Source: Thermodesulfobacteriota bacterium
GTDB taxonomy: Bacteria > Desulfobacterota > GWC2-55-46 > JADFVP01
Length of the DNA: 64,000 nucleotides
Assembly (NCBI GenBank): GCA_046753845.1
Contig: JBHHUP010000003.1
Span: 6,236 to 70,235, forward strand
Direction of reading: 5' to 3'
Below, piece after piece: positions 8,316 through 53,577 of this stretch. Position 1 is the stretch's first letter, and every line of letters starts with the position of its first letter. The translations under genes were made by a program, and so were the position numbers. The notes beneath the pieces are model-generated. The model did not search any database, had not been told where the DNA came from, and worked only from the letters and a program-made list of their open reading frames with translations.

Positions 8316-9140
8316 TCATATCAACTTCATATCATCGTTCACGGACCTTACCATCCTGCCCTTGAGCCTGTGCATGGCCTGACTATGGAGCTGACATACC
8401 CTTGACTCGGTAATCTCCATGACACGGCCAATTTCTTTAAGCGTAAGCTCATTAAAATAATAAAGCGATACAATGAGCTTCTCTTTCTCCGGCAATGAGT
8501 CCACAAGGGTTGCCAGAGTGCTTTGCAGCTCGCTGAACCTCGCAAAGGCCATGGGGTCGGCCCCGTTGGGGTCTTCAATACACTCGAGTATGTCCATCTT
8601 GCTGTCATTATCAGGGACAAGGTCCTCGATGTGAATAAGACTGTAGGCGCTCACCTTGCTGAGCATCCCCCGGAGCGCCTCCACGGAGAGGTCAAGAAAC
8701 TCCGCCACGTCCTGTTCGCTTGCCGGGCCGCCGGTGCGCCTCTCAATCTCACCGTAGGCCCTTTTCAGCATATTGGACTTTTCACGCATGGAGCGCGTCA
8801 TCCAATCCATGCCTCGAAGCTCATCCATGATAGCCCCTCGTATCCTTATCGACGCATAGGTCTTAAACTTTATACCCCGTGAGGCGTCAAACTTATCAAT
8901 AGACTCAAGGAGCCCTATGGTGCCGGCGCTCATCAGGTCATTTACATCGATATGAGGCGGCAGATGAACGGCTATGTGATGGGCGATTATCTTCACCAGC
9001 CTTATGTTCTCCAGCATGAGGCTCTCCCTCTCGGGTTCCGCAATGAGAGAGACTCTCTTTTTGACTGACGTCTTTTTCATATTGCCTGACCTCAGGCGTC
9101 CTCTTGAAGGCGCCTTGCTTTTATTTATTTGTGTTTTCAT
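8316..9140 (-). CDS. fliA: flagellar sigma factor FliA (sigma-28)
   Basis: Sigma70 region 2 'YASIRIRGAIMDELR' and region 4 HTH 'LTLKEIGRVMEITESRVCQLHSQAMHRL'. ATGA overlap with flhG. Confidence 0.85.
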   Translation of the reverse strand: MKTQINKSKAPSRGRLRSGNMKKTSVKKRVSLIAEPERESLMLENIRLVKIIAHHIAVHLPPHIDVNDLMSAGTIGLLESIDKFDASRGIKFKTYASIRIRGAIMDELRGMDWMTRSMREKSNMLKRAYGEIERRTGGPASEQDVAEFLDLSVEALRGMLSKVSAYSLIHIEDLVPDNDSKMDILECIEDPNGADPMAFARFSELQSTLATLVDSLPEKEKLIVSLYYFNELTLKEIGRVMEITESRVCQLHSQAMHRLKGRMVRSVNDDMKLI

Positions 9141-19337: not shown

Positions 19338-19354
19338 ATTGCAAGCTCCGTGCC
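19338..19354 (-). promoter_or_regulatory. sigma-54 promoter (TGGCACG-N4-TTGCA, perfect consensus) upstream of fliL
   Basis: Minus-strand reading: TGGCACGGAGCTTGCAA. It lies about 45 nt upstream of the fliL start codon. Confidence 0.65.
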
Positions 19355-19477
19355 ACTGCCGGAAAGACGTGGTGAAACCCCTCTGCACGGTAAAAACATA
19401 ACCTGATGCCAGCAGGCGCACCTCTGAGATGGCGCTCAGTCAAAGTCATGGGATAAGTGGCTGTCATTTTAATGATT

Positions 19478-19510: not shown

Positions 19511-19589
19511 TAGGATAAGTATCTGTAAGAAAAGATCCAAACTCGAACTTATTGGAGTGACCTCTCTTACAGATGGAACAAAAGGCCTA

Positions 19590-23846: not shown

Positions 23847-23863
23847 AGCAACGGCCGTGCCAG
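23847..23863 (-). promoter_or_regulatory. sigma-54 promoter (TGGCACG-N4-TTGCT) upstream of fliK
   Basis: Minus-strand reading: CTGGCACGGCCGTTGCT, about 55 nt upstream of the fliK ATG. It sits in a 335-bp AT-rich gap. Confidence 0.65.
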
Positions 23864-23904: not shown

Positions 23905-24115
23905 TAAGATTAGCTTCATATTAACACTTATGGCATTATCTGCCGGTAAAGGGGCAAAAAAAAGACCCCCGGGCAATCTTTGCCTCATTAAAGAGGTCAT
24001 TAATCGCGCGGGGGCCCTGTAAGTTTACGGCCTGCCTATTGATAAAAATTATCTCATTAAATATTCTCCGCTACCGGACTAAGACGTACCTCCCCGTTCC
24101 ATCCTCCCTCCGCGC

Positions 24116-26431: not shown

Positions 26432-26567
26432 GGATTTTACTGACTCTGTACAATTTGCAAGTCTTTTCTTAAGGGCCCCTGAGTACAGAACAAGACCTCC
26501 ATCTCTTTTAGATAAAAAGAACCTCGGCCATAAATCTCAAAACAACAGAGTAATCTTCAGAAGAGAC

Positions 26568-26623
26568 TCTACTCTCATCCCCCCCCCGCATACCCCGGCG
26601 CCCCTCTGCTCTCTCAGCTCAGA
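26568..26623 (-). other. G-run-rich element (G9, G4, G4, G5, G3 on the transcribed strand) in the 238-nt fliH-fliI spacer
   Basis: Plus strand shows cccccccccgcataccccggcgcccctctgctctctcagctcagatcccccatccc. On the minus (mRNA) strand this has G-quadruplex-forming potential. Confidence 0.4.
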
Positions 26624-26669
26624 TCCCCCATCCCATTCCACCACCACTAACGCTGCCCCCGGCTGCCCG

Positions 26670-31086: not shown

Positions 31087-31193
31087 CTCATCCTCTTTAA
31101 CAGGAAAGATAATTTTTTAACTAACTAAAAATACCTCATCAAGGCCAGCCGGCTCAAAATACCCGCCCTCATTAACCTCTCCACCATCTTCCT

Positions 31194-31257
31194 ACTCATC
31201 TGCCAGCCACATATGCCTGCCTTACCATCCTCCTGCTCATCTGCCAACCATATACGC
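31194..31257 (-). promoter_or_regulatory. pair of 23-bp imperfect direct repeats in the flgB upstream/leader region (candidate regulator binding sites)
   Basis: ctcatctgccagccacatatgcc (31194-31216) and ctcatctgccaaccatatacgcc (31235-31257) are 19/23 identical with a 41-bp offset. They lie in a strongly pyrimidine-rich (plus strand) tract. Confidence 0.45.
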
Positions 31258-31330
31258 CCAAGATCCCTGCGCCTATCTCCTTTAGATCCAGGACCCGGAG
31301 ACCATAACAGTGGCTGCCAGGGATATTAAT

Positions 31331-31346
31331 TGCAAGATTCATACCG
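31331..31346 (-). promoter_or_regulatory. weak candidate sigma-54 promoter (GG-N10-GC with TTGCA -12) upstream of flgB
   Basis: Minus-strand reading: CGGTATGAATCTTGCA. The -12 TTGCA is perfect and the -24 is poor. TTGCAA is palindromic, so the plus strand gives a similar weak match. Confidence 0.25.
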
Positions 31347-31433: not shown

Positions 31434-32780
31434 TCAAGGCGGGGCAGCGGCGCCGTACTCCTTGAGCTTATTCCGAAGTGTACGAATTGAAATGCCAAGC
31501 CTCATGGCGGCCCTTGTCCTGTTGCCTCCTGTATCATCGAGTGTCTTGTATATAAGGTCCCTCTCCACATCCTTAATGGTTATGCCCTGTAATGAAGGCC
31601 CCGTAGAGGCCGTTACACCCCGGCTGGCCTCATCTGCGCCGCCGTGACCGGTACATAGGAGCAGGTGCTCTTTACTAAGGACCGAGCCGCTGCTTAAAAG
31701 CACTGAGCGTTCTATGGTATTTTCAAGCTCCCTTACGTTTCCAGGCCATTGCCGCTCTTTCAAGTAAGCGATAGCCCCGGCGTCGATAGAGGTAAGGTGG
31801 CGTTTATACCGTGCGCTGAACCTCTTCATGAACCCATGGGCCAGAAATGTTATATCCTCGCTCCTGTTGCGGAGCGGCGGGATTACTATGGGAAAGATAT
31901 TAAGGCGGTAGAAGAGGTCTTCTCTGAAGCGGCCCTCCGTGACCTCACTTCGCAGGTCTCTATTGGTAGTAGCGATAATCCTGATATCAAGGCTTTTTAC
32001 CTTTTTTGCGCCAAGCCTCTCTACCTCCCTCTCCTGAATAACGCGCAGGAGCTTGGCCTGAAGCCTTACATCCATCTCGCTCACCTCGTCAAGGAGGATA
32101 GTTCCTTTATCGGCCTGTTCAAACTTACCCTCGCGGGCGGCATTAGCCCCTGTAAAGGCGCCTTTCTCAAAACCAAATAACTCGCTCTCAAGGAGCCCGT
32201 CAGGGATGGATGCGCAGTTAACGGCTACAAAAGGAGCGTCTCTCCTTGCGCTCTCATCGTGAATGAACCTTGACATGAGCTCCTTACCTGTGCCGGACTC
32301 TCCGCTTATCATCACGGTAGCGTCGCTGCCCGCGGCTATCCTTGCAAAGGCAAGGGTCTTGCTCATCACCGGAGAGCTCGTGGGCATGACCCGGGCCCCG
32401 CTTTTTCCGCCGCTGCCTCTTCGGCCGGCAAAGGTCTTATCTACAAGGCTCTCTAGAAGCTCAAGGTCAAAGGGTTTCTGAATAAAATCAAGAGCGCCCT
32501 CCTTTACCGCCTCAACGGCTTTTTTTACCGTTCCGAAGGCCGTGATTAATAGCACCGGCGTAGTGGGCTCTATCTTCTTCACCCCCTTCATTAACTCCAT
32601 ACCGTCCATGCCCGGCATCTTCATATCGCTTATTACGAGCCCGTACCTCCCGGCATGAAACATATCAAGGGCCTCTCTACCTGAAGCGGCGGTAGAGACC
32701 CTGTACCCCTTACGGCAGAGGGCCTCGTTAAGGGCCGTCATCATGCCAAGGTCATCATCAACAACAAGTATATCCTCCAT
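31434..32780 (-). CDS. sigma-54-dependent response regulator (NtrC family; FlrC/FleR-like)
   Basis: Receiver 'ILVVDDDLGMM...ISDMKMPGMDG'. AAA+ 'GESGTGKE' and 'GAFTGA'. C-terminal Fis-type HTH. Sits next to a soluble histidine kinase. Confidence 0.85.
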   Translation of the reverse strand: MEDILVVDDDLGMMTALNEALCRKGYRVSTAASGREALDMFHAGRYGLVISDMKMPGMDGMELMKGVKKIEPTTPVLLITAFGTVKKAVEAVKEGALDFIQKPFDLELLESLVDKTFAGRRGSGGKSGARVMPTSSPVMSKTLAFARIAAGSDATVMISGESGTGKELMSRFIHDESARRDAPFVAVNCASIPDGLLESELFGFEKGAFTGANAAREGKFEQADKGTILLDEVSEMDVRLQAKLLRVIQEREVERLGAKKVKSLDIRIIATTNRDLRSEVTEGRFREDLFYRLNIFPIVIPPLRNRSEDITFLAHGFMKRFSARYKRHLTSIDAGAIAYLKERQWPGNVRELENTIERSVLLSSGSVLSKEHLLLCTGHGGADEASRGVTASTGPSLQGITIKDVERDLIYKTLDDTGGNRTRAAMRLGISIRTLRNKLKEYGAAAPP

Positions 32781-32808: not shown

Positions 32809-33660
32809 TTATGATTCTACCCGTACTTCTTCCTGTGCCTCTTCAGACCACGGCAGAGATAACCTGAACTTCGTGCCCTCACCGGCTACGGATGAACATG
32901 TTATCTCGCCGCCATGAGCCGTGGCAATGGACGCCACTATGGCAAGGCCGAGACCTGTGCCGCTCGGGCGTGTGGTAAAAAAAGGATCAAAGACCCTGTC
33001 TTCTATGCTCTCATCCATGCCGCATCCCGTGTCCTCTATGGTAATCTCAAGTATTTTATCTTCTCTTACAGAGGTGGCTATTTTTATCGAGGCCCGATCC
33101 TTGCCGATGGCGTCAATGGCGTTAAAAAAGAGGTTCAGGAAGAGCTGACGAAGCAGCCCCGCGTCTGCGCGAGTCCTCGTGCTGCCGCTGTAGGAACGAA
33201 TTATCTCTACGTTATCACCGCAGCGTCCCGAGCATGCGGTCAGGGCATCTTCCAAGACGTCCCTTATCTCGATAAAATCCATATTAGGCTCGGGGCCGTT
33301 GGAGAATACAAGCATATCCGAGAGTATGCGGTCGAGGTTCCTCACACTGTCAAGGATATGTCCTGCGAGCTGCTGATTCTCGGTCTGACCCGATAGCTCA
33401 CGGCAGAGCAGGGTTGAAAATATCAGTATGGAGCCCATAGGGTTTCTAATCTCATGGGCAATCTTGGCGGCCATCTCTCCCATGGCCGCAAGGCGCGCCG
33501 TCCTCTGCTCGGCCTTATTCTTTCCGGAGAACTCTCGTTCAAGCTCACCGAATTTATCACCTAACATCTCGTACTGCCGCTCAAGCTTTCGCGAGGACTC
33601 CTCAAATTCCCTGAAGGCCCTGTTCAGGAAGGCCTTATCAATACTCTCGTTCATCTGCAT
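32809..33660 (-). CDS. soluble sensor histidine kinase (FlrB/FleS-like)
   Basis: H-box 'IAHEIRNPMGSI', HATPase 'DTGCGMD...GTGLGLAIV', no TM helix. The probable start is 'MQMNES' at 33660, two nt after the TPR gene stop; the ORF is called to 33705. Confidence 0.75.
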   Translation of the reverse strand: MQMNESIDKAFLNRAFREFEESSRKLERQYEMLGDKFGELEREFSGKNKAEQRTARLAAMGEMAAKIAHEIRNPMGSILIFSTLLCRELSGQTENQQLAGHILDSVRNLDRILSDMLVFSNGPEPNMDFIEIRDVLEDALTACSGRCGDNVEIIRSYSGSTRTRADAGLLRQLFLNLFFNAIDAIGKDRASIKIATSVREDKILEITIEDTGCGMDESIEDRVFDPFFTTRPSGTGLGLAIVASIATAHGGEITCSSVAGEGTKFRLSLPWSEEAQEEVRVES

Positions 33661-33662
33661 CT

Positions 33663-36083
33663 CTATTGTCCCCTGTTTTGCGCTATGGTAAGGGCCTCGG
33701 CCCACTCGCCGTAGGAGTTATATTTCTTCTTAAGTTCACTTACCGCCCGCACCGCCTCTTCGTCCATGCCGGCGCCTGCGTAGCTAAGTGATAAACGGTA
33801 CCTTGCCCATCTATCAGCGGCAAGAGAGAGATTATCCGCCATTGCAGCCGCCTCGGAGTAAGCCACCGCGGCGGCGGCGTATCCTCCGGAGATAAAGAGA
33901 GCGTCTCCGTACCCTGTCTTTGCCTCCAAAAGTCCTGCCCTGTCATTGATTTTTTTGTACTCCTTAATGGCCCGTGAATAAAGAGCCTTAGCCTCGCGCC
34001 ACCTGCCAAGCGCCTTATTGGCTCCGGCTCTCATGAGAAGACAATTAGCCCCCGTCCTGCCGCTGCCAAGACTTATCACCTCTTTATAATTACCCTTCAG
34101 GTACTGAGTCTCAATATAATACTCAGCCCAGAGAGATGCGTTCTCGGCTGCAGAGGAGATGCCCCTTGTGTCCTCAAGAAGCTTAGCCGCCGAGTTAAAG
34201 TCTCTCTGATCAAGATAGATACGTGCCAATGAGAGGTTTGCCTTCACTCTTATATCCCGGCGGCCGATTTTACCGGCTTTGCCAAGTGCCATAACCGCGT
34301 CAGGAGTAAGCCCTACTCTGTAGAGCGCTTCACCCACCCTCAGAAAATTTTCCGCCCTCTTGCCAAATGAGATCCAGTGGCCATAACGATAGTTAACGGT
34401 TACCACCTCAAGCCATTTTTTTTGCTTATACAGCTCCTTAAGCCAGTTATAAGCTGTCTTAGAGCGCAGCAGCCCCATCATCTCTGCGCCGGTGGCAAAA
34501 GGATAGAGAATAAAAAAATCGTCAAGGGCCTTCATGGCCTCGCCATGCTCCTTTAAGTCTTCAAGGACACCGGCAAGGGACAAGAGGGCTTCAGAGGATC
34601 CTATGGTCCTTGCGCCCGCCACCTCTCTATAGAGGTCTCTGGACTTTATAAGTATATGGTCGTCATGGGAGTAATAATCCGCAAGGGCGAGCATGGCCAT
34701 GGCAGCCCCCTCGCCATCGCCTCTCTTTTGAATTTTGGTATAACGCGTAACAGCCTCGTCAATATTACCGCCGGCCAGGATGGTGTCAGTCTCTCTCAAG
34801 GCAAAAAAAGACTCTATAAGGGACTGACCTCTAAAGCGTGTTCCAAGCCCCTTGAATATAATGCCCGCCCCCTTGTAATCACCACGCATCATCTTCAGGT
34901 CTGCAAGTCCCATGAGACTTAGAGGGTCTGTGAAATTATCAAGCTTTTCGTAATAAGACCATGCGGTCTTGAGCTCTCCTTTTAAAAAAAGCGAATCAGC
35001 AAGCCACGCAGCGGCTTCTTTAGAACCATCTTTACGGGCCTTTTTAAACCACTCTCTTGATTCGCTTACCCTGCCTGAAAAAAAGAGTACACGCCCTCTG
35101 CCAAGGGCGGCCGAGGCATGGAGCTTTTTCACACTCTTAGCCTCATAGGCCATGCCATAAAAGGCCATGGCCTCAGGATAGAGCCCCTCTCTCTCATAAG
35201 ACGAAGCAATAAGAAAGTGTACCATCGGTGTAAGGCCGTTCTCAGGGATACTTAAGAGGTCTGTCTCTACATAAGTATTAGATACGTCTTTTTTGATAAG
35301 CAAGATTATATCCTGAAGCGTCCTGGCACGAGGCATCTGCCCCTCTTCAGTAAGAGTTCTGAGATAACCCACGGCATCCATACCCTCTGTCCAACCCTTT
35401 AGGTGAGTTATTGGAAGATACTCACCTATCGTATCAAGGGCGGGGTCAGGGATATTACCGTAATAGTAATCCGTGAGGCGCTGCACCGTAGCCACTCTAT
35501 ACCTCCATCTCCAACCTTTATTGTAGAGAAGCGTATGTTTTCCCTCCTTGCTGTAAGGCTTAAGTGTAAACTTTTCTTCCTGGTTTTTTTTTGTCTTTGG
35601 CTTTACAAAATTAGATTTTCCGGCAAGGTGAGACTTCTTTACATTGGAGTGTGTGACCGTGGCGGCAGGCGCCGGTGTATGTGCTTTTTCGGGATACATA
35701 TCCACAACAATTCTGTATGGCTTATCCATAGTCCAGTACCTGACGCGAGCCATATTCTGCTTAAGTTCAACAAAAAAACTCGTAACAGGGGTATCACCAT
35801 CACTTTTCGTAGATACCTTTGTGAGTCTAAATAAATCCGTTCCGGCGTTACCGCCGCTAAATCCCTTGGACTCTATACCAAGAACTGATACTTCAATGGT
35901 CCTGCCGGTTTTTTTTGTACGATACCCGGCTTCGCTTCCGAGCTCTATCACAAGCCTGTGAAAATCTCTGTGCTCACCCGCCCTTGTTGAGAGAATATCT
36001 CCCTTGTCTCCGCCAGAGGCCGGCAAGAAGGTAGAGATAGATAAAAGAGGTATTATGATTATATACAGAATATACTTCAGCAC
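33663..36083 (-). CDS. secreted TPR-repeat protein with N-terminal AMIN-like domain
   Basis: 806 aa, GTG start with a GGAGGAG SD. Signal peptide 'MLKYILYIIIIPLLSISTFLPASG'. N-terminal 'FRLTKVSTKSDGDTPVTSFFVELKQNMARVRYWTMDKPYRIVVDM' resembles AMIN beta-domains. The remainder is TPR-like helical repeats (many A/Y/G-rich pairs). Confidence 0.6.
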   Translation of the reverse strand: MLKYILYIIIIPLLSISTFLPASGGDKGDILSTRAGEHRDFHRLVIELGSEAGYRTKKTGRTIEVSVLGIESKGFSGGNAGTDLFRLTKVSTKSDGDTPVTSFFVELKQNMARVRYWTMDKPYRIVVDMYPEKAHTPAPAATVTHSNVKKSHLAGKSNFVKPKTKKNQEEKFTLKPYSKEGKHTLLYNKGWRWRYRVATVQRLTDYYYGNIPDPALDTIGEYLPITHLKGWTEGMDAVGYLRTLTEEGQMPRARTLQDIILLIKKDVSNTYVETDLLSIPENGLTPMVHFLIASSYEREGLYPEAMAFYGMAYEAKSVKKLHASAALGRGRVLFFSGRVSESREWFKKARKDGSKEAAAWLADSLFLKGELKTAWSYYEKLDNFTDPLSLMGLADLKMMRGDYKGAGIIFKGLGTRFRGQSLIESFFALRETDTILAGGNIDEAVTRYTKIQKRGDGEGAAMAMLALADYYSHDDHILIKSRDLYREVAGARTIGSSEALLSLAGVLEDLKEHGEAMKALDDFFILYPFATGAEMMGLLRSKTAYNWLKELYKQKKWLEVVTVNYRYGHWISFGKRAENFLRVGEALYRVGLTPDAVMALGKAGKIGRRDIRVKANLSLARIYLDQRDFNSAAKLLEDTRGISSAAENASLWAEYYIETQYLKGNYKEVISLGSGRTGANCLLMRAGANKALGRWREAKALYSRAIKEYKKINDRAGLLEAKTGYGDALFISGGYAAAAVAYSEAAAMADNLSLAADRWARYRLSLSYAGAGMDEEAVRAVSELKKKYNSYGEWAEALTIAQNRGQ

Positions 36084-36109
36084 CGTGACTCCTCCATGTC
36101 ATAAGAAGA

Positions 36110-36127
36110 AGCAACAAACATGCCACG
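36110..36127 (-). promoter_or_regulatory. sigma-54 promoter (TGGCATG-N4-TTGCT) upstream of the TPR-kinase-regulator operon
   Basis: Minus-strand reading: CGTGGCATGTTTGTTGCT, 15-25 nt upstream of the GTG start. It is immediately downstream of the FleQ-like gene. Confidence 0.6.
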
Positions 36128-36297
36128 AGGAAAGCCCCGTGGCATCTATTGAGAAAAAGCCGTTTTTCTTATGGATAATTGGCCTGTTACGGCGATATGA
36201 AATGGAGATTTTACGGATTAGGCCGCAGTAAAGAGCCCGACGTCATAAGACAGACACCCACAATGTGTTGAGAGCTTGACCCTCAGGAGTTTACCCC

Positions 36298-37698
36298 TCA
36301 GGAATCGAGTCTCAGCCCTTTTCTCTTCATCTTTTCTATAAGGGTTGTCCTGTTGAGCTTCAAGAACTTGGCCGCGTTTTTCTTAACGCCATGCACCATG
36401 CCCAGGGCGTTGATAATCAGGTCCGTCTCGAACTTATCTACAACGGAATTAAAGTCAAGCCCCTCAGGGGAGATATAGACACGGTAATCAAAGCCCTTAA
36501 CGTGTTTTCTTGAGAGGAGAATCGTAGCCTTTTTGATGTTATCAGGGAGATCGTTTTCCACCACCTCGCCTTTTTCTTTAAGAACAACGATCCTCTCTAT
36601 AACATTTTCCATCTCACGTACATTACCGGGCCACTCATACTCCTCAAAGAGCCTCATAGCATTTGGAGACACTTTGGTTACGTCTTTATTCTTTGACTTC
36701 GAAATTGATTTGAGAAAATGTTTGATGAAGACAGGTATATCTTCTTTTCTCTCCCTTAAGGGGGGCATATCTATCGGGATTACATTAAGTCTGTAATAGA
36801 GATCCTCACGAAATTTTTTCTCCTTGATGGCCTTGGTGAGGTTCTGATTAGTGGCGGCCAGAACTCGGATGTCTACCTTAATAGTCTTTCTTCCGCCAAC
36901 CCTCTCGAACTCCTTTTCCTGCAGAACCCTCAGTATTTTGACTTGCAGGCCGGGGCTCATATCACCTATCTCATCAAGAAAGACCGTTCCGCCGTTGGCG
37001 GCCTCGAACCTGCCTATCTTCGTGGCTATAGCCCCTGTAAAGGCGCCTTTTTCGTGACCAAAGAGCTCACTCTCAAGGAGGTCTTCGGGGATGGCGCCGC
37101 AGTTTATGGGTACAAAGGGCTCACTGGACCTGTTGGACCCAAAATGCAGGGCCCGAGCCACTATCTCTTTACCTGTACCGGACTCGCCGAGGATAAGAAC
37201 AGTGGAGTCCGTATCTGCTACCTTGTTAATGATGCTTCTAACATGTTCTATCTTGTCGCTGGTGCCAAGGATACGGTCTATTAGCTTACGGCTTATGTTT
37301 CTTTTAAGCCTGAGATTTTCAGCAGTAAGCTCACTCACCTCAAAGGCCTTCTCAATGGTTACGAGGACCTCGACTTTATTGTAGGGTTTTTTGATATATG
37401 AAAAAGCTCCGGCGTTTAATGCATCCATGGCTTTTTTTATAGAGCCGTCGCTGGGAATAACAACGGCGCTCGTACTGGAGCTGGCACCTGTTATTGCACG
37501 GACGAACTCTATATCATTTATATCCGAGATGTTAAGATCGGCTATTACAACGTTGGGGGCGTTTCTTCTGATGTAGCTTATCGCGGCATCGGGTTTTTTT
37601 ATTGTATTAACAAAATAATCCTCGGCGCGAAAATTTTCTTTAAGGAACTTAGACATCGAGCCATCCTCTTCGACTAATAGAACATTCCTTTTCCTCAT
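36298..37698 (-). CDS. sigma-54-dependent transcriptional activator (FleQ/FlrA-like master regulator)
   Basis: 466 aa. Atypical N-terminal receiver-like domain. AAA+ 'GESGTGKE', 'GAFTGA', 'EWPGNVREMEN'. C-terminal HTH. Confidence 0.85.
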   Translation of the reverse strand: MRKRNVLLVEEDGSMSKFLKENFRAEDYFVNTIKKPDAAISYIRRNAPNVVIADLNISDINDIEFVRAITGASSSTSAVVIPSDGSIKKAMDALNAGAFSYIKKPYNKVEVLVTIEKAFEVSELTAENLRLKRNISRKLIDRILGTSDKIEHVRSIINKVADTDSTVLILGESGTGKEIVARALHFGSNRSSEPFVPINCGAIPEDLLESELFGHEKGAFTGAIATKIGRFEAANGGTVFLDEIGDMSPGLQVKILRVLQEKEFERVGGRKTIKVDIRVLAATNQNLTKAIKEKKFREDLYYRLNVIPIDMPPLRERKEDIPVFIKHFLKSISKSKNKDVTKVSPNAMRLFEEYEWPGNVREMENVIERIVVLKEKGEVVENDLPDNIKKATILLSRKHVKGFDYRVYISPEGLDFNSVVDKFETDLIINALGMVHGVKKNAAKFLKLNRTTLIEKMKRKGLRLDS

Positions 37699-37829
37699 CC
37701 ATATCTCCTTTTATAAGAATATGATATCGAGGATGTATCTCAAGATGAAAGTATTTAGTAATATGCCGCGATGAATCTTCAGTGATGAGTGGTTTTTAAA
37801 GACAACGAGATGAAGACTGCCAATCCCTG

Positions 37830-38120
37830 ATGCAATTCAGACTCAGGTACAACTTAGGCCCCGGTGTTATTTAGACCCATGTGTGATTTAGTCGAGTTGA
37901 AATATAGCCCAGGAGCAATTTTGGCCAAGATGCAATTTAGTCGAGAGGCAAATCAGGCCCGATGAAACTTAGACCCATGTGCAATTTAACCAAGGTGTGA
38001 TGTAGTCGAGTTGAAATGTAGCCCCGATGCAATGTAGCCCAGGAGCAATGTTGGCCCAGGTGCAATGTTGGCCCAGGTGCAATGTTGGCCCAGGTGCGAT
38101 TTTAGCCCAGGTGCGATTGC
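37830..38120. repeat. degenerate tandem array of about 18 copies of a 16-18 bp unit (consensus approximately GTGCAATKTWGSCCMRG), including three perfect 17-bp copies
   Basis: The perfect copies gcaatgttggcccaggt x3 are at 38045-38095. Degenerate copies (tgcaatttagtcgagag, gtgcaatttaaccaag, gaaatgtagccccga and others) extend upstream. The array lies in the divergent region between the FleQ-like gene and motA2. Confidence 0.8.
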
Positions 38121-38247
38121 GTGATGTTGAGCATGCCAGAGTTGGGTGAGATATCCGAGGTGTAAAAATATTGTACTTTAAAGGTGCGGGACTGTCAATA
38201 TGAAAATTAAATAGTCTAATTTGTGACACAGAGGCTGTGCCATGCGG

Positions 38248-38285
38248 TGCCGTGAAGTTTTGCGTGAAGTTTTGCGTGACGTTTT
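38248..38285. repeat. 12-13 bp direct repeat x3 (TGCGTGAAGTTTT)
   Basis: tgccgtgaagttt tgcgtgaagttt tgcgtgacgtttt, about 60 bp upstream of the sigma28 -35 element of motA2. Confidence 0.6.
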
Positions 38286-38343: not shown

Positions 38344-38370
38344 TAAAGTTTTGCTCCATGCATCCGATGT
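38344..38370 (+). promoter_or_regulatory. sigma-28 (FliA) promoter upstream of motA2B2
   Basis: TAAAGTTT-N11-TCCGATGT against consensus TAAAGTTT-N11-GCCGATAA, about 95 nt upstream of the motA2 ATG. Confidence 0.6.
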
Positions 38371-40337: not shown

Positions 40338-40919
40338 TTAGTGAGTACCGGCATCTTTCTTATTCGAACCGCTCCGTATCATCCTTCTCTGCCAGGCGAA
40401 GATATACCGCACAATTCTCTCCCTTACCCTGTCATCCATATCCACAAACTTTATCCCCACCTTCCATCCCCCCTCGATATTATCGCATACCCAGACGACC
40501 TCTCCTGTGACATCAAGGTCCTGGGTCTGATTAGGGAGAAATAATTTTATCGCAAGCTCATCGCCCTCACTGAACTGCTTATTGCATAGAATCTTAATAC
40601 CTCCGCCGCTTATGTTATCTATACGGGCCTCGGGTATCTCAAAACAGCGTTCGCTGGTGGTCTGCGTAAGGAGCTTTTTCAGCTTCTGGTTTATCTCAAT
40701 CAGAAGATCGTACATATCAGGGTCGTCTGAGGAGATGGCCTCCACCTTTCTTGCAAAGGACCTCAGCTCCCGGATATTCACGGCGGTATCTGTAATATTG
40801 ACACCTTGTTTTGCCACATAATACATGGGTATACTGTCATCTATTCTCACATACTCGCGATTATTAGAAATCATGCCAACCATGTACATCACCTCTTCTC
40901 TTTCATTGACATTATCCAT
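40338..40919 (-). CDS. PilZ-domain protein (YcgR/MotI-like candidate c-di-GMP flagellar effector)
   Basis: 193 aa. 'RIDNISGGGIKILCNKQFSEGDELAIKLFL...GEVVWV...GIKFVDMD' matches the PilZ (D/N)xSxGG barrel motif. No canonical RxxxR motif at the usual spacing. It is the last gene of the flagellin-fliD-fliS operon. Confidence 0.5.
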   Translation of the reverse strand: MDNVNEREEVMYMVGMISNNREYVRIDDSIPMYYVAKQGVNITDTAVNIRELRSFARKVEAISSDDPDMYDLLIEINQKLKKLLTQTTSERCFEIPEARIDNISGGGIKILCNKQFSEGDELAIKLFLPNQTQDLDVTGEVVWVCDNIEGGWKVGIKFVDMDDRVRERIVRYIFAWQRRMIRSGSNKKDAGTH

Positions 40920-40926
40920 CTTTAGA

Positions 40927-41271
40927 TTACCTTTGTAATTTCATGTTAACCATAGGCGAGGCGTAGGCCCTGTGCGCCCTGGTACAATGTAATACTTTCC
41001 GGAGTTCCCGGCGGGTTTCTTCAAGCGCGCCTTCCATAGAGACCCGGAGATCGCAGTCAAAGTTAAGTATCTCTTTTATAATATCTTGCTCCATATTTTT
41101 TTGCGCCTCCACCGCCTTTATCTTACTTATTCTGGAGATAATCTCATCGCGTTCAAGGATGGAACCCGCGAGCTCAGTGAGACGATTTTCAGAAAAAAGT
41201 CCTTTTTGGGCCCTGGCGATATTGAGCAGTCTCTTTAATAAATCAATTCTATCCGCGTTCTCAAGCTCCAT
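40927..41271 (-). CDS. small helical protein in the FliT position (possible flagellar chaperone)
   Basis: About 115 aa downstream of fliS, as fliT is in the Bacillus fliD-fliS-fliT arrangement. Probable start 'MELENADRIDLLKRLL'. No diagnostic motif. Confidence 0.3.
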   Translation of the reverse strand: MELENADRIDLLKRLLNIARAQKGLFSENRLTELAGSILERDEIISRISKIKAVEAQKNMEQDIIKEILNFDCDLRVSMEGALEETRRELRKVLHCTRAHRAYASPMVNMKLQR

Positions 41272-41674
41272 ATCCAGCCCCCGCTTCAATTGAAGGTTTT
41301 TCAGCCCCTGCGCCGGATGCCACAAGAGCGTCCCAGCCTTCTTTGACCTCGGCGAATAGCGCCGTAACACCCTCGATAATCCTTATAGAGTTCTTATTAT
41401 TTGCCTCGGCAAGCCTCGTAAGTGAGTGCAGATAGAGGTCCCGGAGGTTAATGGCCACCTCTTCACCCCTCTGCATATCAAGAGCGTTGTATAGCTCGCT
41501 TATAATGGCGATGGATCTGTTTATATACTCGCTGCGCTTCTCTATATCATTGTCTTTTATCGCCAGAGCCGCGAGCCTGTTGAACTTGATAACACCCTCG
41601 TAAAGCATTACAACAAGGCGAACCCTGTCAGATGTCATTACCTGAACCTTCTGATATGCCTTGATACCTTTCAT
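41261..41674 (-). CDS. fliS: flagellin-specific chaperone FliS
   Basis: 137 aa. 'RLVVMLYEGVIKFNRLA' and 'IISELYNALDMQRGEEVAINLRDLYLHSLTRLAEAN'. Confidence 0.85.
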   Translation of the reverse strand: MKGIKAYQKVQVMTSDRVRLVVMLYEGVIKFNRLAALAIKDNDIEKRSEYINRSIAIISELYNALDMQRGEEVAINLRDLYLHSLTRLAEANNKNSIRIIEGVTALFAEVKEGWDALVASGAGAEKPSIEAGAGYGA

Positions 41675-44152: not shown

Positions 44153-44788
44153 TCACATATCGCCTCGGCTGAAGACCTTTTCCTCCATTTCTTTAAGGAG
44201 CGGTGTCAACTCATATTCGAGTATATCGGCAAGAAGCACATTATCGAGGGCCAGCCTCGCGTCCTTTAACGCAGACATATTCCGCAGTATATCCTCGTAA
44301 TAGGTTAGGGGATTTTCTTTAAATACATCTATGCTGTAAGCAAGGCCGCATTTATAGAGCGCGTCCATGGTCCTTACCATCTCTCCGGTGCTCTCAATAA
44401 TAGCGCCAAGGTAGTTATCTATCTCGCCTGAGCCGCGTCTGAGCGCGCCTGTCATATTCATCGCGAGCTCGCAGATAAAGGTAATGTACTCGCCAACAGT
44501 GTATATACCCTGCAGTACAACGTGGTCAATGCCGCTCGTAAAGAGCCGTAACTCGCCATAGCTTTTAAGGGGCTTATTAATAGCAGAGGCGTCCTTCCAC
44601 AAAGCGCCCTCGTTTCTGCCGTCAACCCATAACTCCATAATAAAACGCCTTAAGGGTTTTAAATCAGACTCCACGGCATCAACAAGATCGCCTACGGTAG
44701 AGCTTACTTTTACGCCGCTAAAATCCAGCCGGGCATCGTCAAGGTATATTTCCGTAATCATAGGAGACTCCTTTCTTGCTTTTTTCAC
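44153..44788 (-). CDS. hypothetical protein translationally coupled (ATGA) to the Maf-family gene
   Basis: 211 aa. No recognizable motif. 4-nt overlap with the upstream maf-like gene. Confidence 0.4.
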   Translation of the reverse strand: MKKARKESPMITEIYLDDARLDFSGVKVSSTVGDLVDAVESDLKPLRRFIMELWVDGRNEGALWKDASAINKPLKSYGELRLFTSGIDHVVLQGIYTVGEYITFICELAMNMTGALRRGSGEIDNYLGAIIESTGEMVRTMDALYKCGLAYSIDVFKENPLTYYEDILRNMSALKDARLALDNVLLADILEYELTPLLKEMEEKVFSRGDM

Positions 44789-46701
44789 TTTTTATTAACA
44801 GCAACCGGCATCTCTGCTTGCCCCTCCAAATTCAAGCACCGAACCTTTTTAAGGGCATCTGATATCTTGGGCAGGAAAAGAAGACACATCTTACGTACCT
44901 CCTTGTATGTGCGTATAGTACGATCGATATCCTTTCTGAACTGGTCTTCTGTTGAGCTCTCCTCATCCTCTTTCAGGTACTCCTTAAGGTCGTATGTATA
45001 CTCAACAAGGGCCTCCCAGAGAAAAGAGACCTCGCAGACAGCCTTAAAGAGCCTGCGTTCCTTTCTCCTTATCCTGTCAAGTTTACCGCTAAGCTCGGTA
45101 CGAAGCCCCCTGGATATAAAATCAACCTTAAGTACGCCGGCCCCCTTGATTATCTCCCCGGAGAGTTTTTCAACAATTCTTACCCTGTCTCGAAGTTTTG
45201 TAAAAGACTCTATAAGCCCTCTTATGTCTACATCAGGGGGCGTGCTCTCGCTTTGATGAAGTATCTTGTCCACGTCTACGGGTTTTTGCAGGTGCCTTCT
45301 GATAACCTCTTTGAGGGTTGTATGCTCCATGCCCTTTATAAAGGCCCCGCCCTCAGTGGCGTTGTATACACGGATTGAGGGAAACTGCTCTTTAAGCAGC
45401 GCAGTATAACGCTCAAACCACTGATGAAAGGTTACCCAGTCGTATTTGCTCGCTACGGGTTCACCGTTAAAACCTTGCAGCCACAGCAGCTTATGCGTAA
45501 TAGTACGCCGGTGACCTGATATATAATGCTCTTTTACACTGACAAGCCCCTTATCCTTGTCAATGGATATCCTCTGCTTATCGTAAACGCCTCCGCCAAC
45601 GTGGGTCATGTTTTTATCAAAGGCAAGATCCTGGCCGAGAAATATTATAGGGTCGCAGCCGAACATTACGCCCATATCAAACATGGCCGTAGTTACGGAG
45701 CCGCCGATTGATACAAAGGACTTACTCCCCCAGAGGCGCGCCTGCTGAAGGCTCAAGGCGATAAAGGGGCTGTAGAAGATAAATTTACCATGGGCTTCGC
45801 GCTTGAACATCTCCGGATGCGAGACCTCTGAGAGTATAAGGCGTATCTTTTTATCGGCCTCACCGCCGTCAAAGTATTCATCAAGATTAACTTTTTCTCC
45901 TGATATTACCGCGTGCGGCACGATACCGTAGCTTAGCAGGCTCTTATAAGCGGTTACGGCGGAGACTATAAAGGCCTTGTCTTTTAGCTCCGCAAGAAGT
46001 GATACGTTTTTTCGAAGCGATGGCCCGGCACCTACGATAATCATGGGAACGCCCTTGAATTGGTCACGCATAACATCTACAGAGGGATAGACAGGAAAGG
46101 CGTCGAGGTTGGCGAAATAATTCATCAGCCAGTCCAGCCTTGAGTCTATCTCTGTCTTTATGCCAACCATCTGCGAGGTATGGGCGTTCTGTATCTTAAC
46201 GAGAAATTCCTTAAGCTCACCCTGGAAGGTCAACCTGTAAGGCATGGTGTGGTAGCCGATGATACTGTCAACCCCTTCTGTAAACTGCTGAACCCGTGCG
46301 ATAAAGGGCCCTATATAATTTGCAAGGTAGACCCTCTGTCCGGAGAATTCTTTACTGAGGTCTATCTTCATAAGCACAGCCTTTAGTATCTCCATAGAGG
46401 GCTCATAGATAAAAATTTTCTGTGTGCCGCGCTTTAAGAGGGTAGACATAAGGTAACCGCATCCGAGTCCGAATAAGGCCACGGAGTCGGGTTTCTTGCC
46501 GAGTATCTCTTCGGCCTGCTCGTCAGCCTCCTTCCACGGCCCGTACTGGCTGTTAAAGAGGCGTCCCTTGTAGGAGAGGACAAACTCCTTATTCTTACCT
46601 CTGTAGATCTTGGCTACGTCCTTATTAAAGGCGCGCAGTCTCTCGGCGAGGATGCTGTCCTGTTTTGCTATGGCGGCGCAGTTAGTCTCGAAAATACTCA
46701 T
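44785..46701 (-). CDS. maf: motility-associated factor (Maf/DUF115 family) putative flagellin nonulosonic-acid glycosyltransferase
   Basis: 638 aa. The central 'GVPMIIVGAGPSL...NATEGGAF' MptE/DUF115-like core is typical of Campylobacter/Helicobacter/Aeromonas Maf proteins. Adjacent to flagellin and the pse genes. Confidence 0.65.
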   Translation of the reverse strand: MSIFETNCAAIAKQDSILAERLRAFNKDVAKIYRGKNKEFVLSYKGRLFNSQYGPWKEADEQAEEILGKKPDSVALFGLGCGYLMSTLLKRGTQKIFIYEPSMEILKAVLMKIDLSKEFSGQRVYLANYIGPFIARVQQFTEGVDSIIGYHTMPYRLTFQGELKEFLVKIQNAHTSQMVGIKTEIDSRLDWLMNYFANLDAFPVYPSVDVMRDQFKGVPMIIVGAGPSLRKNVSLLAELKDKAFIVSAVTAYKSLLSYGIVPHAVISGEKVNLDEYFDGGEADKKIRLILSEVSHPEMFKREAHGKFIFYSPFIALSLQQARLWGSKSFVSIGGSVTTAMFDMGVMFGCDPIIFLGQDLAFDKNMTHVGGGVYDKQRISIDKDKGLVSVKEHYISGHRRTITHKLLWLQGFNGEPVASKYDWVTFHQWFERYTALLKEQFPSIRVYNATEGGAFIKGMEHTTLKEVIRRHLQKPVDVDKILHQSESTPPDVDIRGLIESFTKLRDRVRIVEKLSGEIIKGAGVLKVDFISRGLRTELSGKLDRIRRKERRLFKAVCEVSFLWEALVEYTYDLKEYLKEDEESSTEDQFRKDIDRTIRTYKEVRKMCLLFLPKISDALKKVRCLNLEGQAEMPVAVNKK

Positions 46702-46732
46702 ATCAATACCCCGTACTTTTTACCATGGCAGG

Positions 46733-48823
46733 TTACATTACCTTCTCTGCCATGACCTTGAATCTTACCTCGTTAATTCCTCGCCATACCCAATAGGCCG
46801 TATCATCAACCTCGCCAGCGGAGTGATAGAGGCGCAGAAAAAACTCATTACCGGGTTCGCTGTAATTTATCATGGGCACGGTGTGCACAATGTTGCGCTC
46901 CGAAGATATGCATAGGGTCTTTTTCCTGTCCCCAAAGCTTACCCATCCTTCCGTGGCCCCAAGACAGCTTGTGCCCGATATGGCCGGGCTTACGGGCTTC
47001 GCGTGAGAGAGACTGCGACCGCTTAAGCTGAACCTCTCAGGCCCCGTACCGCCGTTAATGGTCTCGAACCACAGGTCTTTCTTATCAAAGGCCCCGGGCA
47101 TAAGCGTAAATATACCGAGGCGCAGGCTTGAAGCCGCCAGTCCCCGTGCCGTCAGCCTGTAGCTTAGAGTAAATTCATCCCCGCCCCGGGGGATTTGATA
47201 CTCCTTTACAAGCCTGCCTATGGACGTATCAATTACCGCGCTTATACGCACCCCGGCCTCGTCTTCAATCACAGTTGGCACGACAGGCACAAGGTCCGTA
47301 GTCTTTGTGCCGGCTCGGTCCGTATGTATGAGATGCCCTGAAAAAAAATCGGCCCCGAGCTCAATGGAATCAAAGTAACCGTGCCCGAGGGTGCCGAGCA
47401 GAGGCCGCGCTGAGACATGGGGAAAAAGAACCGAGGCAAGGGCAAGGCCCCTGTCTTTCAAAAACTCAATCTCAACCCTGCCGGTGGAGATGCGAAGGCG
47501 CCTTGCGTCCTCGTAGACCCTGACCTTGCTCCTGCCCGCCAGAGCCCTTGCCCCCTTTACAGGTAAAGAGAAGGCCACGCCCCCTGTGGTGCCCGTAGCG
47601 CGGAGCGCCCCTTCCTGTACAATGGATTCACTTCGCGCGAGATCCATGGAACCTTCAAGAGTAAGGTTTTTCCCTCTCTCCAGAAGACCGGCCTTGGAGA
47701 TTAGAGACCTGGTCTCAAAACTCAGCCACCCCAGTCGTTCGTTTAAATAAGCGAGCTTATCATCAGTGGTGTTTGTACGAAAATCACTGCCCCAGACCTC
47801 ACATAGCATCTCACACAGCTCACCCCTCCCCCGTAGCGCGCCCCCTGCCTCAAGGGCCAAAAGCTTCTTATATACACCGAGACACCGCGCGTTAAGATGG
47901 GCGCTGTCCCTACCCGTGACGCTCCACCTTAGCGGGTTGTACCGCTCCTGCTTCTTGCATACAATGGGCGTCTCCGTTGATTCAAGCCTTATGGGCGGGG
48001 CGTCGGAGCTACCCTTGAATTGACGTAGAATTTCCTCTGGCCTTAAAAGGGCAAATCTCTTCTCCATTATCAGCCCCTTTAAGAGCTCTCTTATCCTCTT
48101 AAAATCCCCCCGCGGCATCCGGCCGAGCCCCGGCCTGTAATCAAAGACCTCGGCGTCATTGGAATAGGCCACAAAGGCCCTCTCCTGCTCCTTATTATAA
48201 TGAGAGAGCAGATACTCTCTGTATTCTCTGGTAGATAGCTCGCCGCTGACGCATCGGCCAAACTTCTGAAAGGCTATGGAGTTTGACCATAGCAGCCCCA
48301 TGGACTCGCCGGGAAGCCTTCCGGCGGCCCTCTGCGGCGAGTACATAATCTCCGGCGCATACTCGTTATGACGGGAGCAGTTATTCCAGTCCATGATTAA
48401 GGCATCATAACCGGCCTCTTTATATAACCCCACAAGCCCGGCAGAAAAGGTCTGCTCATTGACAAGGGCTACTGATGGGCTAAACCCGAGAATTTCCTCG
48501 TAATACTTATTGCCAAGCTCAAGGTTCCATCTGTTAACCCCGGCCGGAATTAGAGGCATAATTGACTGAGCGTAACCTGAGCCGATAAAACTCATCCTGC
48601 CCGACCTTAATAACTCCTTAAGGCCTCGGGTAAAGGCCGGGTCTATGCTTTGAACCTCGCGAAGGGTCCATGCAGGCATCTCAATGGCGATAGGAATCCC
48701 CTCCTCGGCCATACGAAGTAAGGGCCAATAGCAGTTTTTGATAACAACAGGAAACTCCTCTCTCGCTATGAGAGAAAAAGCCAGATTGCAGTGAAATAAT
48801 ACGTAAAGGTTAAGCCTTGCCAT
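46733..48823 (-). CDS. large protein with a GH57-like N-terminal domain, function unknown
   Basis: 696 aa. The N-terminal 'LNLYVLFHCNLAFS' block resembles the GH57 / (beta/alpha)7 glycoside-hydrolase-like fold. The C-terminal half is uncharacterized. Co-operonic with maf. Confidence 0.35.
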   Translation of the reverse strand: MARLNLYVLFHCNLAFSLIAREEFPVVIKNCYWPLLRMAEEGIPIAIEMPAWTLREVQSIDPAFTRGLKELLRSGRMSFIGSGYAQSIMPLIPAGVNRWNLELGNKYYEEILGFSPSVALVNEQTFSAGLVGLYKEAGYDALIMDWNNCSRHNEYAPEIMYSPQRAAGRLPGESMGLLWSNSIAFQKFGRCVSGELSTREYREYLLSHYNKEQERAFVAYSNDAEVFDYRPGLGRMPRGDFKRIRELLKGLIMEKRFALLRPEEILRQFKGSSDAPPIRLESTETPIVCKKQERYNPLRWSVTGRDSAHLNARCLGVYKKLLALEAGGALRGRGELCEMLCEVWGSDFRTNTTDDKLAYLNERLGWLSFETRSLISKAGLLERGKNLTLEGSMDLARSESIVQEGALRATGTTGGVAFSLPVKGARALAGRSKVRVYEDARRLRISTGRVEIEFLKDRGLALASVLFPHVSARPLLGTLGHGYFDSIELGADFFSGHLIHTDRAGTKTTDLVPVVPTVIEDEAGVRISAVIDTSIGRLVKEYQIPRGGDEFTLSYRLTARGLAASSLRLGIFTLMPGAFDKKDLWFETINGGTGPERFSLSGRSLSHAKPVSPAISGTSCLGATEGWVSFGDRKKTLCISSERNIVHTVPMINYSEPGNEFFLRLYHSAGEVDDTAYWVWRGINEVRFKVMAEKVM

Positions 48824-48857
48824 AACGGGTTATCCCTTCTTTTGTCAAAAAAATTCT

Positions 48858-53377: not shown

Positions 53378-53441
53378 ACTAATCCTCCATATTTATAGGC
53401 CTTGTTAACTTCGCTCTCCTTCCCGCCTGCTCCACCGCTTT

Positions 53442-53542
53442 ATCGCGCCTGCCCCCCCTGTTGCACTCTACCTTTTCTGTCCTGCCCCACTTCGCGCCCT
53501 ACCCCCTCCCCACCCTGCACCTTCGCACCCTGCCCCCTCCCC
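53442..53542 (-). other. G-run-rich repeat element on the transcribed strand in the 200-nt ADH-FSA intercistronic gap
   Basis: Plus strand holds three copies of tcgcRcc(c)tRccccctcccc (53442-53460, 53491-53511, 53522-53542). On the mRNA these are GGGGAGGGGG(C/T)AGGG(C/T)GCGAA, that is many G3-G7 tracts. Confidence 0.5.
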
Positions 53543-53577
53543 TTTTTCATCACCACATCAGCCCCCTTTAAAGCCCA

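Follow-up and report, generated by a model that had tools for sequence, protein, structure and literature searches.

The flagellar hierarchy of Vibrio cholerae has four classes and runs from FlrA through FlrBC to FliA. The gene of the master activator, flrA, lies directly upstream of the sigma-54 promoter of flrBC, and the FlrA-bound region upstream of that promoter contains an activator site of the GTCA-N6 type, GTCA-N6-TGGC (PMC4641369, PMC3930126). In Pseudomonas aeruginosa, looping lets FleQ act at fleSR over a distance, and fliL also depends on FleQ (PMC6120874, PMC3930126). For Desulfovibrio, control of the flagellum by two activators was predicted earlier: D. vulgaris, of the same phylum-level group as the organism considered here, has the FlrA/FleQ-like sigma-54 activator DVU2894, with a predicted autoregulatory motif, yGTCA-N6-TGACr, and the two-component enhancer-binding protein (EBP) DVU1063 (PMC4641369). 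Flagellar operons have been shown to be under RpoN control in Geobacter (PMC2725144, PMC8844916), where an RpoN-dependent activator is essential for flagella (PMC8844916) and sigma-54 promoters stand before flgB, fliL, and the fliA-containing operon (PMC2725144). In Campylobacter and Helicobacter, the soluble coiled-coil kinase FlgS and the sigma-54 activator FlgR control the rod and hook genes (PMC3930126, PMC7064773). Here, we describe a 64,000-nucleotide stretch of contig JBHHUP010000003.1 from an uncultured Thermodesulfobacteriota bacterium (the window), in which the gene of a FleQ/FlrA-like sigma-54 activator, EBP1, is followed by a sigma-54 promoter and by genes encoding a tetratricopeptide repeat (TPR) protein, a soluble histidine kinase (HK), and a second activator, EBP2. 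The interval between EBP1 and the TPR gene is, on balance, rather probably the point at which the first tier of a flagellar hierarchy based on sigma-54 and sigma-28 hands over to the second, and the relay is the known FleQ/FlrA-FlrBC-FliA design with local twists.

The likeness to V. cholerae includes the master activator gene directly upstream of the sigma-54 promoter, a similar GTCA-N6-type site before that promoter, the presence of FlhF/FlhG and FliA, and the closer relation of EBP1 to FlrA and of EBP2 to FlrC. The locus differs from that of Vibrio in the receiver (REC) domain with an acceptor Asp in EBP1, in the PflA-like first cistron, in the coiled-coil kinase without PAS domain, in the structural gene order, which is that of the Bacillus fla/che array, and in a hairpin overlapping the -24 box. 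The motif upstream of DVU2894 is paralleled by the box at 38214-38227; however, DVU2894 is without an N-terminal domain and lies apart from the two-component pair, and no TPR gene is described there. As in Geobacter, sigma-54 promoters precede the flgB and fliL units, whereas the cassette EBP1-TPR-HK-EBP2 is not described in the Geobacter papers examined. FgrM, a subject of Ueki and colleagues in 2012, is reportedly under a His-Asp phosphorelay, which would fit a receiver-bearing EBP1. In Campylobacter and Helicobacter, no linkage of pflA with flgSR is described, and there is no FleQ-like tier.

The positions of all features discussed are collected in Table 1. EBP1, the TPR gene, the kinase gene, EBP2, and the downstream flagellar genes are all on the minus strand. 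The comparative set consists of about ten related loci, all from metagenome-assembled genomes (MAGs), which limits the weight of the covariation counts given below. Synteny is complete in the close relatives (fliD-fliS-fliT-PilZ / motBA / EBP1-TPR-HK-EBP2-flgB...), and distant relatives retain the four-gene cassette. Among the loci referred to by number, L021 is a further close locus, L017, L018, and L019 are distant (EBP1 58-60% identical), and L022, also distant, was found by a metagenome scan with FliM.

Table 1. Predicted features of the flagellar locus (window coordinates; sequence tokens as read on the strand given).
Feature	Position	Strand	Remarks
EBP1	36298..37698	minus	466 aa sigma-54 activator: REC, AAA+ with GAFTGA, FleQ-type helix-turn-helix (HTH) (Pfam)
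TPR gene	33663..36083	minus	PflA-like product, 806 aa; GTG start
Soluble histidine kinase gene	32809..33660	minus	coiled coil, HisKA, HATPase
EBP2	31434..32780	minus	REC-AAA+-HTH activator, FlrC-like
fliA	8316..9140	minus	
Sigma-54 promoter, TPR gene, TGGCATGTTTGTTGCT	36125..36110	minus	TGGCAT-GTTTG-TTGCT; exact consensus
Shine-Dalgarno sequence and start, TPR gene	36081..36095	minus	GGAGGAG and GTG; read from sequence
GC-rich hairpin, ATGCCACGGGG-CTTT-CCTCGTGGCAT	36120..36145	minus	terminator scan; 3' arm is the -24 box
A/T block, AGAAAAACGGCTTTTTCT	36152..36169	minus	conserved in alignment of nine loci
Site B, GTCATAAGACAGAC	36242..36255	plus	candidate enhancer; exact GTCA-N6-AGAC
Site A, GTCAAGCTCTCAAC	36267..36280	minus	degenerate FleQ-box-like; fixed position right after EBP1 stop
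15-bp tandem duplication, TCCTGAGGGGTAAAC / TCCTGAGGGTCAAGC	36274..36303	minus	spans EBP1 stop codon; only in window
EBP1 leader (5'), about 465 nt	37699..38163	minus	predicted; about 17 tandem copies of a 16-17-bp unit
EBP1 sigma-70-type promoter	38170..38198	minus	TTGACA-N17-TACAAT; 11/12 consensus positions
FleQ-box-like site, EBP1, GTCACAAATTAGAC	38214..38227	minus	just upstream of EBP1 -35
Sigma-54 promoter, flgB, CGGTATGAATCTTGCA	31331..31346	minus	upstream of flgB-flgC-fliE-fliF...
Sigma-54 promoter, fliK-flgD-flgE	23847..23862	minus	exact consensus match
Sigma-54 promoter, fliL...flhA-flhF-flhG-fliA	19340..19355	minus	exact consensus match
FleQ-box-like site, fliL, ATCATTAAAATGAC	19463..19476	minus	116 bp upstream of fliL promoter
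Sigma-28 promoter, flagellin, TAAAGTTT-N11-GCCGATAA	44118..44144	minus	
Sigma-28 promoter, motAB, TAAAGTTT-N11-TCCGATGT	38344..38370	plus	divergent from EBP1; conserved in all relatives

A sigma-54 promoter about 170 bp downstream of EBP1 had been proposed in a preliminary description of this DNA, and it was borne out. The T of the -24 element lies 173 bp downstream of the EBP1 stop codon, with GG at 36124-36123 and GC at 36112-36111 (in reverse complement, 36110-36127 reads CGTGGCATGTTTGTTGCT), and the GTG start of the TPR gene stands 27 bp 3' of the promoter; transcription is predicted to start near 36100. The consensus was defined by GG and GC 10 bp apart within TGGCAC-N5-TTGCW. Exact matches to TGGCAY-N5-TTGCW number three in the 64-kb window against 0.15 expected, a count that none of 100 shuffles reached, and each of the three lies between genes, on the coding strand, with a start codon 27-70 bp further downstream (TPR gene, fliK, and fliL). 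The same three sites received the top scores in a weighted sigma-54 scan, in which all lower-scoring matches were intragenic, while a generic GG-N10-GC search of the window was uninformative (668 matches, 693 expected). At the TPR gene, TGGCAY-N5-TTGC is invariant and in the same place in 10 close loci, although most of the spacer diverges, and the promoter is also kept in L021 and in the distant L018 and L019. Because of the enrichment of exact matches and the conservation within diverged spacers, this predicted promoter is regarded as real.

The earlier account had missed a conserved GC-rich hairpin that overlaps the -24 box of this promoter. Its free energy is -19.1 kcal/mol in the window (z = -5.6), and seven of the eight relatives folded gave -18 to -28.5 kcal/mol (z = -5 to -7.7); the eighth, L002, is uninformative because its segment was mis-cut and excludes the 5' arm. 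The stem is 11-15 bp long, with 15 consensus pairs in the alignment of nine loci, in which 91.7% of the stem cells are paired against at most 64% when the partners are slid. Compensatory changes occur at six stem pairs. One of these involves position 6 of the -24 box, which is C or T and is matched in the 5' arm by G or A (GC in five loci, AU in four), and several stem positions carry G-U wobbles, which pair on the sense strand only. Because the arms covary in this way, an RNA structure accounts for the pattern better than a palindrome bound by protein, and since sigma-54 transcripts would start downstream of it, the hairpin would belong solely to EBP1-derived RNA. It is followed by GTTTGTTGCTTCTT, with 5 T in the first 8 nt, and was accepted by the terminator scan. 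L021 is without the overlapping hairpin and has a canonical terminator just after the EBP1 stop codon in its place, which supports the role of an insulating terminator, and a terminator-like element is found in the spacer of every close relative. The hairpin is thus probably the terminator, and the 3' end, of the EBP1 transcript. A search of Rfam gave no match at gathering thresholds and only two chance snoRNA matches at E <= 1. A second RNAalifold helix, in which the -12 to +1 pyrimidine tract pairs with the Shine-Dalgarno sequence and which would form an anti-Shine-Dalgarno structure in read-through RNA only, was dropped as indistinguishable from composition (87.5% paired against 54-69% in slid controls; 27-36 of 500 shuffles reached the observed values).

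Enhancer elements had also been proposed upstream of the promoter. FleQ-box-like sites do lie there at enhancer distance, but the two elements actually named, a ccctcagga repeat and an A/T hairpin, are not supported as enhancers. The repeat, earlier placed at 36271-36294, has its copies at 36280-36288 and 36295-36303, the second overlapping the EBP1 stop codon (36298-36300). It is a window-specific duplication absent in nine of nine relatives and hence not a conserved enhancer. Because of the 15-bp tandem duplication, the spacer between EBP1 and the TPR gene is longer in the window (214 bp) than in the nine relatives (200-204 bp). The A/T hairpin, whose former coordinates 36150-36167 are corrected in Table 1, is a conserved block, AAAAC(A/G)G(G/C)TTTT, but nothing indicates an enhancer role. 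At a guess, it may be a bend or a site for integration host factor (IHF); the IHF consensus was not seen in it on inspection by eye, with no formal test.

Preferred over both elements is Site B, the best enhancer candidate, an exact box that precedes the -24 GG by about 125 bp. It is conserved in the window, L001, L002, and L005, and its AGAC variant is identical to that of the box at EBP1's own promoter. The second site, Site A, follows the pattern GTCA-N6-(C/T)(G/A)AC; it is found in nine of nine loci, 198-203 bp before the TPR start, and is exact, as GTCA-N6-CGAC, in L004, L013, and L014. In the whole window, exact GTCA-N6-HGAC occurs four times, and two of the four fall in intergenic DNA, which makes up 6.8% of the window; these two lie one on either side of EBP1 and are both of the AGAC variant. 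Upstream of EBP1, a sigma-70-type promoter is kept as TTGACA-N17-TAyAAT in eight related loci, and the box beside its -35 element is conserved as GTGTCA(C/T)-N5-(A/C)GAC in nine, which suggests autoregulation by EBP1. A further box-like site precedes the fliL promoter, and in L022, a perfect GTCATAATTCTGAC precedes the fliL sigma-54 promoter by 138 bp. The conserved box-like sites at the EBP1 promoter, in the spacer, and at fliL are candidate EBP1 targets.

EBP1 was previously called FleQ-like, which holds for its ATPase core and its HTH. Pfam recognized Response_reg (58 bits), PF00158 (247 bits), and PF02954 (HTH_8, Fis-type), and GAFTGA is present in the alignment. The PDB matches of the protein were FleQ (303-329 bits, the best match for the core), NtrC1-type (326), FlrA (295), and FlrC (252); for the last 100 residues, FleQ was the sole PDB match, and the recognition helix, RTTLIEKMKRKG, is nearly identical to that of FleQ, RTTLVEKMRKYG. 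The name does not hold for the N-terminus. The receiver keeps the acceptor D54 and K104, with EE for DD and P/S at the T87 position, and Pfam found no FleQ N-terminal domain in EBP1. The cyclic di-GMP (c-di-GMP) residues of FleQ are said to be R144, R185, N186, E330, and R334, in a list attributed to Matsuyama and colleagues in 2016; EBP1 keeps R185, and the other four are replaced by D, A, H, and S. As judged from its domains, EBP1 is a protein with a FleQ/FlrA-like ATPase core and DNA-binding helix that stands outside the FleQ family by its N-terminus. None of the four proteins (EBP1, EBP2, kinase, and TPR protein) received an equivalog-level name from NCBIfam. Identity among relatives is 87-93% for EBP1, far above that of the TPR protein (47-67% across ten distinct loci with unchanged gene order).

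Two variants of EBP1 were observed. In L014 (1840-2958), a clean in-frame deletion of residues ~16-109 removes the receiver core and the acceptor Asp, while the start codon and the leader are kept and the remaining protein is 90% identical; this is an artefact of assembly or else a naturally occurring form without receiver, possibly constitutive, like DVU2894. L020 (6001-7506) encodes a paralogue of 501 aa, 80% identical, in a non-flagellar context, with PAS-HisKA_3 kinases and a GerE-type regulator as neighbours and no TPR gene downstream.

The genes downstream of the promoter had been described as a TPR-kinase-regulator operon. The gene set stands, with the correction that its first cistron is a PflA-like structural gene among regulators. 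Since the intergenic gaps are 2 and 28 nt (the kinase ATG, at 33660, is 2 nt after the TPR stop codon), the three genes are likely one operon. An AlphaFold2 model of the TPR protein (pLDDT 74.8) begins with a hydrophobic helix, followed by a beta-sandwich at residues 30-129, a disordered linker at 133-185, and, from 190 to 805, a TPR superhelix; Pfam gave TPR matches and a weak AMIN-like match (24.6 bits against a cutoff of 27). In Foldseek, the top PDB match was 9hmf_K, a chain of the Campylobacter jejuni periplasmic scaffold (E 1e-12, with a TM of only 0.2), followed by a generic TPR protein (2e-9); judging from its 773 residues, 9hmf_K is presumably PflA 16-788. PflA consists of an AMIN-like beta-sandwich, a flexible linker, and 16-17 TPRs and forms the motor spokes that hold the stators, and in many phyla, single TPR proteins encoded beside flagellar genes have been put forward as homologues of PflA (PMC12222027, PMC11870540). 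The modelled protein shares this architecture (signal sequence, AMIN beta-sandwich, linker, and TPR superhelix) without detectable sequence similarity: it is PflA-like by fold layout and flagellar gene context. A PDB search with a profile of 10 family members returned no chain of PflA at E <= 1, NCBIfam gave only a weak YbgF match, and a profile search yielded about 45 clusters at E <= 1e-30 without a link to a named family. Its relatives are few, all in uncultured Thermodesulfobacteriota, and annotated just as "tetratricopeptide repeat protein"; a metagenome scan with the family alignment gave no match.

The description of the downstream pair as FlrBC-like is upheld by a cytoplasmic HisKA-HATPase kinase and an FlrC-like REC-AAA+-HTH regulator in an FlhF/FlhG organism. 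The kinase has no transmembrane segment, its Pfam domains are HisKA and HATPase only, with no PAS sensor domain, and its translation reads as having a heptad- and coiled-coil-like stretch at the N-terminus; in predicted architecture it resembles FlgS. In most close relatives, it has 275-282 aa and starts 3-18 nt after the TPR stop codon, and in L021 it has 310 aa and overlaps the TPR gene. EBP2 carries a REC domain, PF00158 (228 bits), and PF02954, and its PDB scores (FlrC 277 bits, FleQ 233-248, FlrA 225) are, among the flagellar activators, in the reverse order of those of EBP1.

Beyond this operon, the earlier promoter set proved incomplete, as a fourth sigma-54 promoter stands before flgB. 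It is 100% identical in six of six close loci and varies in L017-L019 and L021. Its -24 half is unusual (CGGTAT against TGGCAC), and the identity of all 16 nt in the six loci, spacer included, suggests a constraint beyond sigma-54 recognition. FleQ-type boxes were not found upstream of the flgB or fliK promoters of the window. As no sigma-54-like site was seen in the gaps before flhA, flhF, and fliA of the window, fliA probably ends the fliL transcript. The presence of fliA and of two sigma-28 promoters, of flagellin and motA, was found as described earlier. Together, the predicted promoter types fit the order sigma-70, sigma-54 with EBP1, sigma-54 with EBP2, and sigma-28; fliL is assigned to EBP1, and flgB and fliK to EBP2, from the presence or absence of a box and by analogy with Pseudomonas and Vibrio (PMC3930126).

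The Bacillus-like gene order was confirmed, as the array of the window matches the Bacillus fla/che order. EBP2 is followed on its 3' side by flgB, flgC, fliE, fliF, fliG, fliH, fliI, fliJ, an FlbB-like open reading frame (ORF), fliK, flgD, and flgE, then by fliL, fliM, fliN, fliO, three unscanned ORFs (fliP, fliQ, and fliR by position only), flhB, flhA, flhF, flhG, and fliA. Unlike the single Bacillus operon, the array is split into several sigma-54 units, because canonical intrinsic terminators with 8-9 T intervene on the minus strand, after flgE (19478-19511) and before the fliK promoter (~23960-24010).

We propose the following relay. EBP1 would be transcribed from its own sigma-70 promoter under a FleQ-type box, and its transcript would end at the -24-box hairpin, leaving the downstream genes dependent on sigma-54. 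EBP1 would then bind the FleQ-box-like sites ~125-150 bp upstream and, together with sigma-54 RNA polymerase, open TGGCAT-N5-TTGCT, so that the promoter would drive the PflA-like periplasmic spoke protein, the soluble FlgS/FlrB-like kinase, and EBP2. EBP1 probably also fires the fliL promoter of the long operon ending in fliA; the two boxless promoters, those of flgB and fliK, would presumably be fired by phosphorylated EBP2, and FliA would act at the sigma-28 promoters ahead of flagellin and motAB. Conservation lends this relay good support. The genes and domains, the promoter motifs and their conservation, the covarying hairpin, and the box positions are observed, and from them we infer the protein-DNA contacts, transcript ends, operon limits, and order of the tiers. 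As to the Vibrio/Pseudomonas logic on a Bacillus-like order that was suggested earlier, conservation and gene order bear it out in part, with the reservation that EBP1 may also drive fliL, and hence fliA, directly.

Several observations weigh against this relay. Site A is a degenerate box, the spacers of L003 and L006 contain no exact FleQ-type box, and the proposed FleQ consensus of P. aeruginosa, GTCaNTAAAtTGAC, which the window boxes resemble, is said to be unreliable genome-wide (PMC6120874). The receiver with its phospho-acceptor sets EBP1 apart from FleQ and FlrA with respect to the input signal. The T-tract of the hairpin is interrupted by the -12 element, is shorter than the 8-9 T of the clear terminators elsewhere in the window, and is weaker still in the L003-L005 group (3-5 T in the first 8-10 nt). 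The distant L017 has a 143-bp spacer without a recognizable sigma-54 promoter before the TPR gene, and rpoN is absent from the window. In addition, strict EBP2 dependence of flgB would be circular, because the flgB operon contains fliF and fliG, whose products other polar flagellates need before the kinase becomes active (PMC7064773).

Some of these points bear on other explanations. The promoter of the TPR operon might instead be fired by EBP2, in a positive autoregulation like that of glnAp2-ntrBC, and EBP1 would then have other targets. Autoregulated two-component EBP operons are common, EBP2 is encoded within the operon and has a full HTH, and the boxless spacers of L003 and L006 agree with this explanation. 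We nevertheless find it unlikely, considering that the GTCA-N6-(A/C)GAC variant is common to the spacer and to EBP1's own promoter, that EBP1 has a FleQ-like HTH and the box is like those of FleQ, FlrA, and DVU2894 (PMC4641369), and that the equivalent operon of Vibrio and Pseudomonas is under the upstream master activator (PMC3930126).

The two remaining alternatives concern the hairpin and the need for a separate tier. The palindrome over the -24 box could be a DNA operator at which a dimeric repressor or an EBP competes with the sigma-54 holoenzyme, with no role in RNA; it is a perfect inverted repeat centred beside the promoter, and the T-tract behind it is imperfect. However, a protein site would be expected to keep its sequence rather than its pairing, while the arms vary by lineage and stay complementary, the loop-proximal part included, the G-U wobbles pair on the sense strand only, and L021 substitutes a canonical terminator elsewhere in the spacer, which makes an operator very improbable. 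Least credible of all is the absence of a separate tier, with EBP1 and the TPR-HK-EBP2 genes co-transcribed from the sigma-70 promoter and the sigma-54 motif incidental or a booster. A leaky terminator, as the weak T-tract perhaps indicates, and the spacer of L017 would suit such co-transcription, but the 16-nt promoter is invariant amid a diverging spacer, the enrichment statistics speak against chance, and every close relative has a terminator-like element in the spacer.

The relay from EBP1 to EBP2 may have a further property, which we put forward as a quite doubtful extension: the hairpin may physically couple both tiers, with EBP1 protein and the transcriptional traffic of its gene gating the operon. 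A parked sigma-54 closed complex would be a roadblock that enforces termination of the EBP1 transcript, read-through from EBP1 would evict the closed complex, and the phosphorylatable EBP1 may be fed by the kinase that it induces. If true, such a self-latching relay is without description in the flagellar hierarchies checked.

The locus extends the FleQ/FlrA, FlrBC, and FliA design to uncultured Thermodesulfobacteriota with a Bacillus-like gene order, on comparative evidence that goes beyond one motif. Its local variations are a receiver-bearing master activator, a PflA-like spoke gene together with the checkpoint kinase and regulator, and a putative terminator hairpin on the -24 box. They do not overturn the current understanding and are useful for the annotation of MAGs and for considering how flagellar hierarchies are rewired.

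The leader of EBP1, whose 5' end is deduced from the promoter position, is long and G-poor in the window, L001-L006, L013, L014, and L021 (260-557 nt). A strand-specific motif, CA(T/C)C(T/C)B (CAYCYB; for example CATCTTGA, CATCCTGA, and CACCTCGG), occurs in 7-18 copies per leader against 1.3-3.9 expected, with 0-2 copies of the reverse complement (eight loci); it has an anti-Shine-Dalgarno-like look and is absent from Rfam. The arrays differ by lineage, with a 17-bp unit repeated ~17 times in the window and in L002 and a unit of ~48 bp in L004, L013, and L014. Just upstream of the FleQ-like box, between the motA sigma-28 and EBP1 sigma-70 promoters, a 12-bp unit, CGTGAAGTTTTG (plus strand), is repeated 2.9 times (38251-38285). 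Judging from this unit, the leader arrays, and the 15-bp duplication at the stop codon, short tandem duplications appear to be common between the genes of this lineage. The EBP1 and flgB leaders share 7 nt of complementarity, by estimate no more than chance would give, and no claim is made for it. The flgB leader (31087-31330) has a strongly purine/G-rich sense strand, as have the spacers at 26432-26669, 13329-13558, 10076-10183, and 53378-53577 (minus strand), with runs of AGGATG, AAGATG, GAGGTG, and GGGGCAGGGG. It also contains a 35-bp direct repeat (~31250-31180), and in the relatives it is 113-362 nt long and still more G-rich.

On the 5' side of EBP1 lie the divergent motAB, then the PilZ-domain gene, fliS, fliD, flagellin, and a flagellin glycosylation island (44785-64000) with Maf-like MptE, NeuB, a DegT aminotransferase, ATP-grasp, radical SAM/B12, methyltransferase, and dehydrogenase genes. 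The PilZ-domain protein (40338-40919, minus) comes next after an ORF (40927..41370) downstream of fliS that has no family match in the window and is named FliT in relatives. An FlbB/FlgY-like ORF (24116-24676, minus) after fliJ has weak matches to NCBIfam collar_FlbB (26.8 bits, below cutoff) and Pfam MgtE_N. Together with the PflA-like protein, these two match the accessory motor parts of the Campylobacter type, namely the E-ring, the PilZ stator stabiliser, and the spokes (PMC11870540). Directly after fliA, a 640-aa HEAT-repeat protein is encoded (6347-8269, minus), followed by cheR, two cheY, and cheA.

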